44,211 nt of DNA, from positions 1-44,211 of the forward strand of contig JBHLLO010000018.1 of the NCBI GenBank assembly GCA_048885535.1, given 5' to 3'. The notes below the pieces were generated by a model that saw nothing but the letters and a program-made list of their open reading frames with translations, was not told the DNA's origin and did no database searches. Made by a program: the position numbers and the translations under genes. This DNA comes from Candidatus Hermodarchaeota archaeon. Its GTDB lineage: Archaea > Asgardarchaeota > Lokiarchaeia > Sigyniarchaeales > SOKP01. This document shows positions 6,947 to 17,056 of the stretch, piece after piece; positions within the stretch are counted from its first letter, which is position 1; each line of letters opens with the position of its first letter.

Positions 6947-7047
6947 GCAGATGTAGCCTAGATGGTAAGACGCCGGCCTCGAGTGGTTAAATTACTTAGA
7001 AAGCCGGTGCGCGTGAGCGCTCGGGGGTTCGAATCCCTCCATCTGCG
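6947..7047 (+). tRNA. tRNA-Ser(CGA) with 18-nt intron at canonical position 37/38 (intron 6984-7001)
   Basis: Acceptor stem GCAGATG/CATCTGC, discriminator G, anticodon stem CCGGC/GCCGG, anticodon CGA at 6980-6982, long variable arm GCGC-GTGA-GCGC, T-arm GGGGG-TTCGAAT-CCCTC; no encoded CCA. Confidence 0.93.
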
Positions 7048-12504: not shown

Positions 12505-13242
12505 TTATTTTGTTATTAATTTTGCTGGGTGTCCAGAATAGATTAAATTTTCTTGTAGAATATCATCATAATTAGTATAGGAATGGGCTGATAGCTTTGC
12601 ATTTTTTTTAACTAATGTGCCAGGTAAAAGCACACATTTAGCTCCTATTGAAGCACCTTCTTCAATTACAATTTTTTTAATAATGAAATTATCTTGTTCA
12701 ATACCAAAAGTTATAACTGTCGAATTCATGCCAATTATTACATTTTTACCAATAAACACAAATTCTGAGGATAACCAACTATTATCACATATTGTTTTTC
12801 TCCCAATTCTTACTCCAAAAAATCTCAATGTAAATCTATTCTTACACCAAGGAAATGGATTTGTCGCAGCTACGTACAAGGGCCACTTTTTAATAATATT
12901 TCTGATATTCCAATAAATATAATCCTTATCTTTAACATCTCTCTTGAAATAACCTTCTTTTGGTAAATGTATCAAATTTATTATCCTTAAAACTAAGCTA
13001 GAAAATAAGATAGCACTAAATTGAAGTAAATAAATCAAAGCTAAAAAATTAAGTGGTAAAAGAAAAAAGAATAAAAAAATTAAATCACCTCTCCAGAGAA
13101 ATATAAAATAGAAATATTCGAATATAGAACAGGGAAAAAAACTTGCAATGATTATCAGAATATAGAAAAATAGATATTTATTTCTTATTCTCTCATCAAC
13201 TGGAGTTGGTGAATCTCCTTTCATACTTGCTGGTTGAAACAT
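12505..13242 (-). CDS. Membrane-anchored hexapeptide-repeat (left-handed beta-helix) acyltransferase-like protein
   Basis: Two N-terminal TM segments, PKEG motif, RFFGVRIG, LbH repeats (IEEGASIGAKCVLLPG), YSGHPA. Confidence 0.75.
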   Translation of the reverse strand: MFQPASMKGDSPTPVDERIRNKYLFFYILIIIASFFPCSIFEYFYFIFLWRGDLIFLFFFLLPLNFLALIYLLQFSAILFSSLVLRIINLIHLPKEGYFKRDVKDKDYIYWNIRNIIKKWPLYVAATNPFPWCKNRFTLRFFGVRIGRKTICDNSWLSSEFVFIGKNVIIGMNSTVITFGIEQDNFIIKKIVIEEGASIGAKCVLLPGTLVKKNAKLSAHSYTNYDDILQENLIYSGHPAKLITK

Positions 13243-13248
13243 TTTAAC

Positions 13249-14079
13249 TTATCCCTCCCCATCTTTCTCTACTTTTACTTTTTCTGCCTTTTTCAAAGAT
13301 TCTTCTACACTTTGAATTGGCAATTTTAGACGAGCTGGAGTTCCAACATGAATTATATCTCCCTCTAATTCCTGTCCTATCCAAGTATAACTATTTACTC
13401 CCAAAACAGCTCCCTCTTGCATGATAGTCCCTGGAGCTATGATAGTATGGGGTCCTACAATACATGCTCTACCTATCTTTACTTTTTTAATAATTACTTT
13501 ATCATGATAAATAAGATGTGAAAAAATACATATGTTCAGAGAAGTCATAGTAAAATCTCCGATTTCTACAAAAACAGGATCTACATATCCTTCATATAAT
13601 ACGACATTCTTTCCGACTTTTATGCCAAAAAAGCGGTAGCATATTATATCCATCCATGGCAGAGGTAAGGCTCTTGCTAACCACACTGGAAAATAAACTG
13701 TCCAAAATCTTCTATGCATGTATTTCCAATCTTTACTTCCTCTTTCAAAAACTCCTTCTTTTGGTGGAGACAGCTTATTTAAGATTCTAAAGATTACTGC
13801 TGAGAATGAAATGATAGTAAATGTAAATAAGAATATATTACCGTATATATTTAAAGGAAGCAATAACCAATAATACCAGTCGGGTCTTAATGCTACTGGA
13901 TAGAATTGGTTTCCTGTTAAAAGGAAATAAAGGCTATTTATAAACCATAAATTTACTAATACTAATACAAGCCCTCCTATGAACAATTGTAGGATTATAA
14001 TTAAAGTAAATGATGTTTTATATACTCCGGAAGTTGATAAGAATTTAATCTCAAAACTTGGTTTGAACCCCTCTGCCAT
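13249..14079 (-). CDS. Membrane-anchored hexapeptide-repeat acyltransferase-like protein (paralog of neighbour)
   Basis: TM segments, PKEG, RFFGIKVG, IGRACIVGPHTIIAPG, VGTPA; ATG at 14079 preceded by GAGTGA. Confidence 0.75.
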   Translation of the reverse strand: MAEGFKPSFEIKFLSTSGVYKTSFTLIIILQLFIGGLVLVLVNLWFINSLYFLLTGNQFYPVALRPDWYYWLLLPLNIYGNIFLFTFTIISFSAVIFRILNKLSPPKEGVFERGSKDWKYMHRRFWTVYFPVWLARALPLPWMDIICYRFFGIKVGKNVVLYEGYVDPVFVEIGDFTMTSLNICIFSHLIYHDKVIIKKVKIGRACIVGPHTIIAPGTIMQEGAVLGVNSYTWIGQELEGDIIHVGTPARLKLPIQSVEESLKKAEKVKVEKDGEG

Positions 14080-14308
14080 TAAAATCACTCAATTTTAATA
14101 CAAATAACTCAAGATATTAATGTCATAATGAGATAATTAATATTTCACATTACTGTTATATTAAGTTTATAATTTTTGTATATACCATGATTTAAATATA
14201 TAGTACCTCATAAAAGAAACAAATAAAAAACAGATACCTTATATAATACTTAAAACCAAAAAAATATATTAGAAAAAAAATTCAAAAATTAGGATTTGGT
14301 GAAATAGA

Positions 14309-15175
14309 GTGTCAATAGATTGGTCCAAAGCGGAAGAGCATCCCGAAAAGAGTCAAAAGGTTGAAGGACGTTTCCTATTAGATTTGAGATCGAAGGTAAA
14401 TGACTTAGAAAAGCAACTAAGTGAAACTAAAACCGAGTTAGGTAAAACCCAAGGAGATCTTAAATCAACTAAAGCCGCTCTTGAGAAAACCGTGAACGAT
14501 CTAAATTCTACAAAATCTACATTAGATGCAACAAAATCAGAATTTAATAATGTTAAATTAACCTTCGAGCAAACCAAAACTGAAAAAAATGCCTTAGAAT
14601 CTGAACTTAGTAATGTTAAATCACAGCTATCTGAATTAGAAAACCTTCCTTCAGAATTAGATTCTGCCAACTCAAAGATTGCTGAACTAGAAAAGCAACT
14701 TGCTGAAGCTCAAAGTAGTGGAGCGTCAAATCAAGCGCAGTTAAACAAGTTAACATCCGAAGTACAGGAATTGAATTCTAAGCTTACTGTACTCCAAGAA
14801 GAAAATAATACCTTAAGTGAGCAAATACAGGAATTTAATAACCTTTTAATTCAAAAAGATAATCAGATTCAAGAATTAACTTCCAGCGTGGACGAAAAAG
14901 ATAAATTGGTTAAAGCTCAAACCGCTCACATAGAAGAAGTAGAAGGCGAACTTCAAGAATTAAAACCACCTGAAATAGGAGCAGGGGGTTTTGCTAGCGA
15001 AGAACGCATCACATGCCCAAATCTTTACCGAATACCGGTATAGAGAGAATTGTGCGGTGCGGTCGGGAATAACATTAAAACAGTAGAAGATAAATCAAAA
15101 GTCTTGTCATATGTTGGTCATATCCCCATGTATGCGAAGAAGCATGTCTGCAAGAAGTGTGGCTACGAATTCTAG
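14309..15175 (+). CDS. Coiled-coil protein with C-terminal zinc ribbon, interrupted by a candidate intron: join(14309..15020,15051..15175), 278 aa; unspliced form is 244 aa and ends at 15043
   Basis: Heptad-rich body; the frame continues past TAG 15041-15043 in the same phase to CGAVGNNIKTVEDKSKVLSYVGHIPMYAKKHVCKKCGYEF-TAG(15173-15175); removing 30 nt gives CPMCG...CKKCG. Confidence 0.75.
15021..15050 (+). other. Candidate BHB-type pre-mRNA intron (30 nt, contains in-frame TAG)
   Basis: Inner hairpin 15022-15030/15036-15044 (8 of 9 paired); 3-nt bulges 15019-15021 and 15049-15051 separated by a 4-nt relaxed helix (2 of 4 Watson-Crick); exon-exon helix 15002-15014/15052-15064 (11 of 13 paired); cutting after the 2nd nucleotide of each bulge joins A+TG. 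Confidence 0.65.
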
Positions 15176-15207
15176 AAAAAAATAACTTTAATTGAAATAT
15201 TTTTTTA
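15174..15207. terminator. Likely bidirectional oligo-A/oligo-T terminator region between convergent genes
   Basis: AAAAAAATA...TATTTTTTT between TAG at 15175 and the TAA of the minus-strand ubiquitin-like gene. Confidence 0.35.
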
Positions 15208-15516
15208 TTAATTCCTTTTTATATTTTTATTAAATAAGCTAAATATAGCATCTCCTTTTACTTTAGTTCCACCGGCTTGAGTAGCCATTACAGTAATTAC
15301 ATCCTTTTTCGGATGTATGCCTATTCTTGCGAACTTTAATTCATCAGGTAGGACTTTACCTTTAAAAATGAATTGAATTGCTAATATTGGATTTAATTTG
15401 TATTCCCGCTGAACTGTTTTTTTAACTTCTGCCACCACACTATTTGGATCTAATTCTATCAATTTGATTGCTTGATCTGGAGGAACTCCGGTCAATCTAA
15501 ACCTATACTCGGTAAT
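15208..15516 (-). CDS. Ubiquitin-like (beta-grasp) protein with GG motif followed by a 19-aa extension
   Basis: VAEVKKTV...QFIFKGKVLPD...IGI...VITVMATQAGG is ubiquitin-like; start extended to ATT at 15516 (GGGGTTGA 6 nt upstream), which restores the beta1 strand EYRFRL. Confidence 0.75.
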   Translation of the reverse strand: MTEYRFRLTGVPPDQAIKLIELDPNSVVAEVKKTVQREYKLNPILAIQFIFKGKVLPDELKFARIGIHPKKDVITVMATQAGGTKVKGDAIFSLFNKNIKRN

Positions 15517-15784: not shown

Positions 15785-17056
15785 ATGAGTGAATTGAGAA
15801 CCTTTTTTGCTTTCGAATTGGAGGATACTGGAAAATATAAAGAGTTAGATTTCTCTGAGAAAGATTTAGTAAATCATCTCAGACCAGAACAAGTCCTAAT
15901 CCTTGTTAGAGAGGATCTAAGAAGGATTTTCATTTGGAAAGGAGCAAAATCATCAGTAAAAAAAAGATTTATAAGTTCTAAAGTAGCACGAGAAATTCAA
16001 GGAGAATTAGCGAAAAATTCTCATTTTCATCAATGTAAAATAGTATCTGTGGACCAAGGAGATGAAATTCAAGAATTTCTTGATGCCTTTAATATAGAGT
16101 CTATGGAAGCAATAGAAAAATTACCTGATATGAGATATATTCGTAACAGTGAAAAACCCCACTATAAAAAAACTAAAGTTTTTTCTAAATATCATGATAG
16201 ATTCTTACAGGAATTCAGAGACAGGACATATAATCTAAATCTAGAGAACTTTCCTGAAGAAAGAGAATTTAAGATTAATAAGTACCTTAGTTTAAAATTG
16301 ATAAAGGGCCAGACAGTCATATATGTGAATGAGAAACCCTTCCATCAATGCAAATATCTCCTGTTAAATCTCACTAATAAGGATTTTTCTAAATTTGATC
16401 AGATTGATTCAATTGATGAAGCATTTGAAATATATAATAAAATGGATAAAAATCATGAAAGAGACCATGATTTAATCGATCCTATTTCTGAGTTTATCGG
16501 TCATTGTTCCAATCTTCAAGCATGGTATGAACATGTTTATGATCTTAGAATTCTTCATAGCAGTTTGTCAATACCACTATTAAAGAAACTGGCATTCTTA
16601 GGTGATAAAAAAGCAATTATTCGATTGAAGGAGAGTATTGCTACACGTTTAGCCTCTAAAAATTACAATACAATAATTTTTTACCTAAATGAACAGTACT
16701 TAAATTTATTCTCGAGTGAAGAATTAGAAGTAATATTCGAAGATTGGCTTGAAAAAAACGTGGATTTCACCATGATGGAAAAGCGAAGATTATGGTATCC
16801 ATTACTCAATGAATTGATTGAAAGAGGGATTACTAAAGCAAAAAAAATCATCAAGGATGAAATTACTCTATATCTTAAAGAAGAAAATTTTGATGGTTAT
16901 CGTTATTTATTAAAAAATGATTTCCTTAAACTTCTAGACTTAGAGGATCTTGAAGAACTTTATGAACTCATCCCAAAAAAAGATGAAGTTGCTTTACGTC
17001 GTATTGAAACTCACATTCTTAAAGATACCCTTAGAAAGAGAAGGAAATCAAGTTGA
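15785..17056 (+). CDS. Gelsolin-like domain fused to a Lokiarchaeia-type uncharacterised domain
   Basis: VLILVREDLRRIFIWKGAKSS...IVSVDQGDEIQEFL gelsolin signature; followed by an EFKINKYLSLKL...QCKYLLLN...DSIDEA...GHCSNLQAWYE module and helical repeats. Confidence 0.7.
   Translation: MSELRTFFAFELEDTGKYKELDFSEKDLVNHLRPEQVLILVREDLRRIFIWKGAKSSVKKRFISSKVAREIQGELAKNSHFHQCKIVSVDQGDEIQEFLDAFNIESMEAIEKLPDMRYIRNSEKPHYKKTKVFSKYHDRFLQEFRDRTYNLNLENFPEEREFKINKYLSLKLIKGQTVIYVNEKPFHQCKYLLLNLTNKDFSKFDQIDSIDEAFEIYNKMDKNHERDHDLIDPISEFIGHCSNLQAWYEHVYDLRILHSSLSIPLLKKLAFLGDKKAIIRLKESIATRLASKNYNTIIFYLNEQYLNLFSSEELEVIFEDWLEKNVDFTMMEKRRLWYPLLNELIERGITKAKKIIKDEITLYLKEENFDGYRYLLKNDFLKLLDLEDLEELYELIPKKDEVALRRIETHILKDTLRKRRKSS

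Follow-up and report, generated by a model that had tools for sequence, protein, structure and literature searches.

A 30-nucleotide (nt) insert with an in-frame stop codon interrupts a zinc-ribbon gene of an Asgard archaeon, and it is likely to be a mini-intron that is removed from the transcript by tRNA-type splicing, i.e. by the endonuclease EndA and the ligase RtcB. The window, by which we mean the whole stretch of DNA analysed, comprises 44,211 nt of Candidatus Hermodarchaeota archaeon (assembly GCA_048885535.1, contig JBHLLO010000018.1, positions 1-44,211, forward strand). Its genome is called G000 below, and other G numbers denote relatives among 154 genomes of the order. The host gene encodes a coiled-coil protein with a C-terminal four-Cys domain, for which no Pfam family scored above its cut-off; it is not the pseudouridine synthase gene cbf5. 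The gene and its insert are laid out as follows.

14309-15043, forward strand: truncated open reading frame (ORF) of 244 amino acids (aa), GTG start, ending at TAG 15041-15043 after ...ITCPNLYRIPV (from the ORF list and translation)
14309-15020, forward strand: exon 1, the coiled-coil region, whose last residues are Cys-Pro plus the base A of a Met codon
15021-15050, forward strand: 30-nt insert, a candidate bulge-helix-bulge (BHB) mini-intron, with in-frame TAG 15041-15043, splitting the CPMCG knuckle
15051-15175, forward strand: exon 2, with TG of the Met codon, CG...CKKCGYEF (the remainder of the four-Cys zinc ribbon) and the stop TAG 15173-15175

The initial annotation had noticed that the ORF halts at TAG 15041 just after Cys-Pro and that the frame resumes with C-G...CKKCGYEF, and the ORF list and translation bear this out: reading past the TAG gives ...ERITCP-NLYRIPV-stop-REL-CGAVG...CKKCGYEF, and the same frame is open until TAG 15173-15175. 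Which bases have to go in order to rebuild the knuckle? A script that tried all 30-nt removals found 15021-15050 to be the sole valid one that restores the strict family consensus, and the earlier claim that 30 nt must be removed for a CPxCG knuckle thus has a unique solution when measured against the orthologues. Excision of these bases joins CCA-A^TG-TGC, that is, Pro-Met-Cys; with either boundary shifted by 1 nt, Leu or Lys replaces Met (three cut pairs compared by hand). At the place of the insert, all 31 database homologues have an uninterrupted C-x-x-C followed by G, S, N or R, and 13 of the 31 read CPMC. The exons themselves look sound. Exon 1 carries the N-terminal SIDW..AEE..PDK..VEG motif common to the orthologues, and exon 2 keeps every invariant family residue.

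The initial annotation had named an assembly artefact as one refuting case, but the insert is real DNA. Four DNA runs of one study contain most of the window, and contigs from two of them (X2 and X4) were compared with the insert region. Independently assembled 287-nt contigs span 14956-15242 including the insert, with no difference in run X2 and one difference in run X4; an insert-less joint, in which the 30 nt are skipped, is not listed among the X2 and X4 contigs. In contigs of related organisms (X4, X6), agreement with the window breaks off precisely at 15050/15051, and ...TGCCCAA precedes the break. A search of G000 for the window's insert gave no further copy, and the tail of the truncated ORF (residues 200-244), used as a protein query, gave one candidate and no hit.

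Is the insert peculiar to this genome? Among 61 related genomes, a stop inside the orthologue match was found only in G000 (TAG) and G016 (TAA). In an order-wide search, a 48-aa domain query was run against the 154 genomes and had matches in 153 of them. The best 150 of 636 matches were inspected, the 486 weaker ones lying outside this set, and carrier counts given here are lower bounds. Six orthologues have stop-containing inserts of exactly 30 nt, at three sites within 32 codons of one domain. Among the matches inspected, those of G016, G136, G153 and G157 span 174 nt rather than 144, with one TAA each, and those of G000 and G102 cover only residues 7-48. The stop codon is TAG in the G000 insert and TAA in the inserts of sites B and C. 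The inserts are these.

Site A (CP^MC), G000: ATCTTTACCGAATACCGGTATAGAGAGAAT
Site A (CP^MC), G102, a different genus from G000: ATCTATACCGAATTCCGGCTTAGAAGGAAT
Site B (HIP^MY), G016: AAATCTATTAATTTCTAATATTTTGGGAAC
Site B (HIP^MY), G136: TAGCAGGTTAATTTCTAACGCGCTGGAAAA
Site C (YAK^KH), G157 and G153, the same insert in both: ACTGTTTTCTAACTCAGAAAACAATTGTAT

Same-site copies are identical at 24 of 30 positions at A and at 17 of 30 at B (hand count). Boundaries are unique in G000, G102 and G016, where only one 30-nt removal fits the consensus and ATG is rebuilt from A^TG; at site C there is an ambiguity of 1 nt, and in G136 one of four positions. At site B the Met restored at the junction never varies, and sites A and B have the local context CCAA^TGT in common. 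A parse of 76 coding sequences from 75 loci gave 70 without an interruption. The remaining six are interrupted but complete in all other respects, keeping the N-terminal motif and all invariant residues. The refuting case named at the outset, an insert unique to this genome and followed by a decaying downstream exon, is at odds with what was found. The proposed comparison of orthologues also came out in favour of an intron, as homologues without an insert have an unbroken C-x-x-C (CPMC in 13 of 31), and G102 has a homologous insert at the same site with compensatory stem changes. A flagged stop in G009:C335 was set aside, since it lies upstream of that gene's start and interrupts nothing. One metagenome pattern scan for site-A inserts gave no further copy, its sole locus being a chance match in another gene, and the other four insert types had only partial, AT-rich chance matches in G000.

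The six inserts have a common layout. Intron nt 1 is an unpaired bulge base, nt 2-10 pair with nt 24-16 (seven or eight of nine pairs), and nt 29-30 together with the first base of exon 2 are unpaired. The loop, nt 11-15, reads AAUAC, AAUUC, AUUUC, AUUUC or AACUC, with the pattern A...C. Intron nt 25-28 face exon nt -3 to -6, and here the sites differ: all four positions pair at B (GGGA or GGAA versus UUCC) and at C (UUGU versus GCAA), and two of four pair at A (GAGA or AGGA versus GCCC). The last two bases of exon 1 are AA in six of six, so that the 5' bulge is AA^N. The result is two 3-nt bulges on opposite strands with a four-position helix between them, and the cuts defined by the orthologues fall after the second base of each bulge. 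EndA is known to follow the same rule, cutting symmetrically after the second bulge base. The available text of a recent preprint on Asgard tRNA introns words cleavage only as 'one cut in each bulge' (bioRxiv 10.64898/2026.10.13.758758).

In the window, the parts of this structure lie at the following positions.

15002-15014, forward strand: 5' strand of the outer exon-exon helix (h), pairing with 15052-15064 at 11 of 13 positions; present in the minimum-free-energy fold
15015-15018, forward strand: exon strand GCCC of the central helix (H), facing 15045-15048, two of four pairs
15019-15021, forward strand: 5' bulge AAA, with a predicted cut after 15020 that matches the orthologue-defined boundary
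15022-15044, forward strand: inner intron hairpin (h'), 15022-15030/15036-15044, eight of nine pairs with one U.U mismatch, loop 15031-15035 AAUAC
15045-15048, forward strand: intron strand GAGA of the central helix, two of four pairs; in G102 it is AGGA, with two of four pairs at different positions
15049-15051, forward strand: 3' bulge AUU, with a predicted cut after 15050
15052-15064, forward strand: 3' strand of the outer helix, partner of 15002-15014; present in the minimum-free-energy fold

The bulges, hairpin and helices that had been named earlier are all present, and the earlier observation that cuts after the second bulge base yield CCA-A^TG-TGC agrees with the boundaries fixed by the orthologues. 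The flanking helices (h, 11/13; h', 8/9) are in canonical register, with at least 2 bp beside the bulges. In the minimum-free-energy fold of 14995-15070, a 7x7 internal loop separates the outer helix from the inner hairpin (-22.0 kcal/mol; z = -2.02, eight of 200 shuffles being equally stable). The geometry rule passed a positive control, in that it also recovered an 18-nt intron of a tRNA on contig C2, at position 37/38 by stem reading. Pair counts at least as good as those of the candidate arise at ~1.4e-6 of (position, length) trials in G000, both strands and 93 lengths considered, which amounts to 799 hits.

Do the stems covary? Pairs were counted in an ungapped alignment of sites A and B, a small sample of four of the six sequences that form two related pairs; site C was tabulated by script, because MAFFT gave no gap-free alignment of it. 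Pairing occupies 78.8% of cells in the A and B alignment versus 30.8-44.2% when the partners are slid by one to three columns. Both sides have changed in eight of 13 pairs overall and in seven of the nine stem pairs, and the covariation score of 0.731 compares with a maximum of 0.218 for slid partners and was reached by none of 500 shuffles. Within this sample of four sequences, the covariation supports the predicted intron stem.

The enzymes for such a reaction appear to be at hand. G000 encodes two EndA (PF01974) paralogues, with 99.7 and 70.2 bits, and one RtcB (560.9 bits). The 200-aa paralogue resembles a chain of the Aeropyrum pernix endonuclease (3p1z_B, E 3e-35); by alignment reading it is alpha-like, with no gaps through the N-terminal loop region and with the Tyr, His and Lys kept. 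The 205-aa paralogue, read in the same way, is beta-like and without the His. Two such paralogues are consistent with an (alpha-beta)2 enzyme with an L1 loop. Asgard archaea are stated to have (alpha-beta)2 EndA, and the L1 loop is tied to broad specificity, in the accessible portion of PMC5829648. Relaxed motifs are frequent in the introns of cbf5 mRNA, which are cut by two-subunit enzymes of this type, according to the portion of PMC2738675 at hand.

How might the insert be removed? In the transcript, 15002-15014 would pair with 15052-15064 and the intron would fold its own 9-bp hairpin, whereby the two 3-nt bulges would be presented about four positions apart. The two-subunit EndA would then cut after 15020 and after 15050, and RtcB would ligate the exons, recreating the ATG codon and the CPMCG knuckle and yielding a protein of 278 aa. 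Unspliced mRNA would give the 244-aa protein, which stops inside the first knuckle. The intron would be one member of a small, uniform 30-nt family found at three sites in the same domain. Both that RNA is cut and ligated and that EndA and RtcB of this genome do so are what we infer from the DNA.

Several results weigh against this interpretation. The central helix GCCC/GAGA, which the initial annotation had already pointed out as weak, indeed has two of four pairs, and the weakness persists in G102, the second carrier of a site-A insert. Even a relaxed BHB motif needs at least three central pairs by the definition in the available text of the preprint, and the window's two of four falls short of this (bioRxiv 10.64898/2026.10.13.758758). 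In 74-nt contexts of the five distinct sequences, the exact BHB conformer lies 5.2 (the window's insert), 9.4, 8.4, 2.3 and 8.8 kcal/mol above the minimum-free-energy fold, and sites B and C have an outer helix that is shifted by one position from the canonical register. The outer helix of site A is largely a by-product of the coding sequence: in 31 intronless orthologue copies the same 13 positions have on average 7.7 pairs, with a maximum of 10, versus 11 in the window. The earlier argument from GC-rich codons in this helix is weakened, because the intronless orthologues already pair to this extent through their coding sequence. Carriers are also rare, six in 154 genomes, and in the paralogous domain family there was no interruption among the 150 matches listed (289 further ones are unlisted).

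Genome-wide scans of G000 point in the same direction. The initial annotation had suggested scanning the genome for other stop-containing hairpins that split conserved motifs; the structure scans were no better than mirror or shifted controls, and none of them was informative. A structure-only scan for pair counts like those of the candidate gave 799 hits with the true geometry versus 759 in the mirror control, and 11 versus 7 when filtered for reading frame, the remaining filtered hits being AT-rich gene ends or spacers with a ribosome-binding site and a start codon. The canonical BHB motif occurred 28,446 versus 28,407 times (345 versus 312 with the frame filter), and the layout of the family at a length of 30 gave 1383 hits versus 1281-1531 in shifted-register controls. 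There is no excess of frame-restoring BHB-like sites in G000, and no class of such introns is visible there.

The core of the initial proposal, an Asgard mRNA with a BHB intron of the tRNA type, has gained strong support from comparison, through the recurrence of the insert, the intact hosts, the common layout and the boundaries; its weak part is the central helix at site A, with two of four pairs.

How did the inserts come to lie where they are? In a quick maximum-likelihood tree, the gene (70 proteins) follows the genera. G000, with its site-A insert, is sister to the intronless G010 and G018 within genus g1 (support 97), and G016 (site B) belongs to a separate g1 clade (support 100). G102 (site A) and G136 (site B) stand beside the intronless G112 within g28, and the two carriers of the site-C insert, G157 and G153, form a sister pair within g29 (support 100). 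Since genes that are not sisters have homologous inserts at one site, these would be either ancient introns that were precisely lost many times or the outcome of lateral spread to that site. The patchy distribution across genera points to lateral spread or repeated precise loss. Downstream of the inserts the coding sequences appear to be constrained: synonymous divergence (pS) is 0.91 and non-synonymous divergence (pN) 0.074 between G000 and G102 beyond site A, and there are 6.0 synonymous versus 1.0 non-synonymous differences between G016 and G136 beyond site B. If the inserts arrived laterally and recently, however, part of this divergence is older than they are, and the test is supportive rather than decisive, which takes some weight from the case for splicing. 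Co-conversion of exon flanks left no signal at A or B. At site C, G157 and G153 are identical in the intron and in 60 of 60 flanking bases versus 117 of 144 further upstream, which suggests recent gene conversion or strong constraint at the RNA level. The identical stretch is about 93 nt long and consists of 30 nt upstream, the insert and the remainder of the gene (approximately 1121-1213 of locus L036 in G157 and 1147-1239 of L037 in G153); the preceding 144 nt have 27 differences.

Could the hairpin be a selfish or accidental insertion that is never spliced, its carriers being recent pseudogenes or makers of truncated proteins and its recurrence at the same sites reflecting a target preference such as CCAA^TG? 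The scarcity of carriers would agree with this, as would the local context that sites A and B have in common, the weak central helix at A, the presence of intact paralogues in G000 and the identity of the G157 and G153 inserts with their flanks, which fits a recent event. We nevertheless consider it unlikely. The six carriers are otherwise intact, with all invariant residues present, and they lie in different genera among intronless relatives. Because the same-site copies have diverged with compensatory changes in the stem, the insert appears to have persisted for a long time. A spreading repeat would be expected in further copies, and G000 has none of any insert type. An unspliced insertion also leaves unexplained why the boundaries obey the endonuclease rule and why intron nt 25-28 are complementary to the exon at four of four positions at two sites. 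A protein split in two, with a separate start for exon 2, was rejected as well, since site B offers no start codon and two chains would have to share the knuckle.

The insert might instead be neutralised in some other way, by ribosomal bypassing or through cleavage and ligation by enzymes other than EndA and RtcB, and we regard this as quite unlikely. That all inserts are stop-containing hairpins with a length that is a multiple of three would suit such mechanisms, and at site C a Lys codon AAA stands before and after the insert, so that a take-off and landing pair is conceivable there; a hop at this site, however, would lose one Lys. Bypassing fails at sites A and B, because the conserved Met codon exists only after the RNA is joined: in G000, G102 and G016 the unspliced RNA lacks the ATG, which arises only from A plus TG. 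Hand reading of A and B, moreover, turned up no matching take-off and landing codons, and the layout agrees with the cut geometry of a BHB motif. Readthrough of the TAG, by pyrrolysine or a suppressor, would give a protein of 288 aa with ten extra residues in the knuckle. The frame is indeed open past a single TAG, but this alternative is very improbable: the gene's own terminator is also TAG, the inserts of sites B and C carry TAA, and ten residues would break the C-x-x-C that is kept in every database homologue. No tRNA with a CUA anticodon is among the ARAGORN calls; Pyl genes were not searched for. An assembly or sequencing artefact may come to mind with a draft genome (112 contigs, 91.6% complete by estimate, 30% G+C), but the X2 and X4 contigs that carry the insert and the related 30-nt inserts in five other genomes effectively refute it, and we give it practically no credence.

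Removal of the insert by EndA and RtcB is thus the reading we prefer, and it leads to a broader but tentative one. The 30-nt BHB mini-introns could form a uniform, mobile family that has colonised this zinc-ribbon gene in Promethearchaeial (Lokiarchaeia-type) Asgard archaea, reaching the same sites across genera without a homing endonuclease, e.g. by reverse splicing or recombination, and being removed from the mRNA by the tRNA-splicing machinery. This wider picture is possible rather than probable.

What is known of comparable systems? Watanabe reportedly described an intron in the cbf5 pre-mRNA of Crenarchaeota in 2002. In the accessible texts of PMC7714728 and PMC2738675, cbf5 of Crenarchaeota is the only archaeal protein-coding sequence named as having an endonuclease-type intron, next to one case in a 5' untranslated region (UTR) in Haloferax. 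The cbf5 intron resembles the Asgard insert in being a short BHB-type intron within a coding sequence, in a host with a two-subunit EndA, and in its often relaxed motif and patchy distribution with gain and loss (PMC2738675, available portion). Splicing has been demonstrated experimentally for cbf5 and is predicted for the Asgard insert. The Asgard case differs further in its host gene, for a coiled-coil/zinc-ribbon protein, in its phylum, and in having three sites within 32 codons, a uniform length of 30 nt and same-site homologues across genera. By its sequence features the insert would thus work like the cbf5 intron, in another gene and phylum, as a member of a uniform 30-nt family at three sites with signs of mobility. 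In HVO_1309 of Haloferax volcanii, an mRNA is likewise a substrate of the archaeal splicing endonuclease, but the intron lies in the 5' UTR of a euryarchaeal gene and interrupts no reading frame (PMC7714728, available portion).

The tRNA genes of Asgard archaea offer a closer setting. They bear a heavy load of introns, many at non-canonical positions and gained repeatedly, and a substantial minority of the inserts are without a canonical motif, according to the accessible text of the preprint (bioRxiv 10.64898/2026.10.13.758758). These BHB introns are from the same lineage and are presumably cut by the same enzyme; the insert described here differs in residing in an mRNA, a word that occurs 0 times in the main text of the preprint. 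No Asgard mRNA intron of the BHB kind was found in the open literature, the scope of the search being exclusive of subscription journals and supplements.

If the splicing is real, this would be the second archaeal host gene with an endonuclease-type intron in its coding sequence. It would also be the first known from Asgard archaea, for which the question of how mRNA introns arose has the greatest weight, and splicing of protein-coding transcripts would then already occur in the archaea most closely related to eukaryotes. Nature has supplied replicates: a single domain has three insertion sites, two of these sites are each represented by a pair of diverged copies, and the six hosts are intact. 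The prediction is also directly testable, because the substrate is ~70 nt long and both enzyme subunits are identified, and it offers a small, tractable system for studying the movement of BHB introns and the degree of motif relaxation that a two-subunit EndA tolerates. Since gene callers annotate such genes as truncated or split, further cases may have been overlooked.

Might splicing also have a regulatory role? In HAC1 and XBP1, a short intron is removed by an endonuclease and ligase of the tRNA type, with RtcB acting on XBP1, and the C-terminus of the protein is altered thereby. The nuclease in that system is Ire1, which recognizes twin stem-loops and is not a BHB/EndA type of system. The likeness to the Asgard gene lies in the removal of a short intron that changes the C-terminus, and since translation of the unspliced RNA would stop within the zinc ribbon, a switch of the HAC1/XBP1 kind is conceivable. 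Regulation is proven for those genes; a toggle between the 244-aa and 278-aa forms is pure conjecture here. Stop-containing hairpins are also bypassed by ribosomes, in gene 60 of phage T4 and in the yeast mitochondrial 'byp' elements of Magnusiomyces. These resemble the Asgard inserts in being short, mobile, hairpin-forming and stop-containing and in sitting in otherwise intact genes. They remain in the mRNA, however, and need matching take-off and landing codons, whereas the Met codon of sites A and B needs joining.

The surroundings of the gene agree with its Asgard origin. The homologues come from sources named Promethearchaeota, Lokiarchaeota and Hermodarchaeota, and of the two adjacent genes, one encodes a ubiquitin-family protein of 95 aa on the reverse strand (15208-15495, convergent to the interrupted gene; PF00240, 34.1 bits, cut-off 25.4) and the next, on the forward strand (15785-17056), encodes a protein with a gelsolin repeat (PF00626, 21.4 bits against a cut-off of 21). 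The two belong to the eukaryote-like signature proteins that typify Asgard genomes, and together with the source names they fit the Asgard setting of the host gene. On the other side (12505-14088, reverse strand) lie two adjoining paralogous membrane-type proteins, 245 and 279 aa long, whose C-terminal region is of the hexapeptide-repeat transferase type; one of them scores above the Pfam cut-off and the other below.

The four-Cys domain is a multi-copy family. Five more copies as C-terminal domains occur in G000, on contigs C24, C46 (two), C25 and C3, with 34-53% identity, and none is interrupted. In some congeners (L005 = G029, L009 = G019, G021:C23) the coiled-coil/zinc-ribbon gene forms tandem pairs ~0.5 kb apart, both copies being uninterrupted.

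Interrupted tRNA genes are also part of this genome. With introns allowed, ARAGORN called 34 tRNAs in G000, 23 of them with introns. Many of these intron calls look doubtful in placement, e.g. a called Thr(TGT) reads the anticodon UGA under the BHB rule, and further interrupted tRNA genes in G000 have probably been missed. The window itself has a tRNA gene at 6947-7047 on the forward strand (Rfam RF00005, 44.2 bits): ARAGORN in its default setting finds zero tRNAs in the window, and with introns allowed it calls this gene tRNA-Ser(CGA), with an 18-nt intron.

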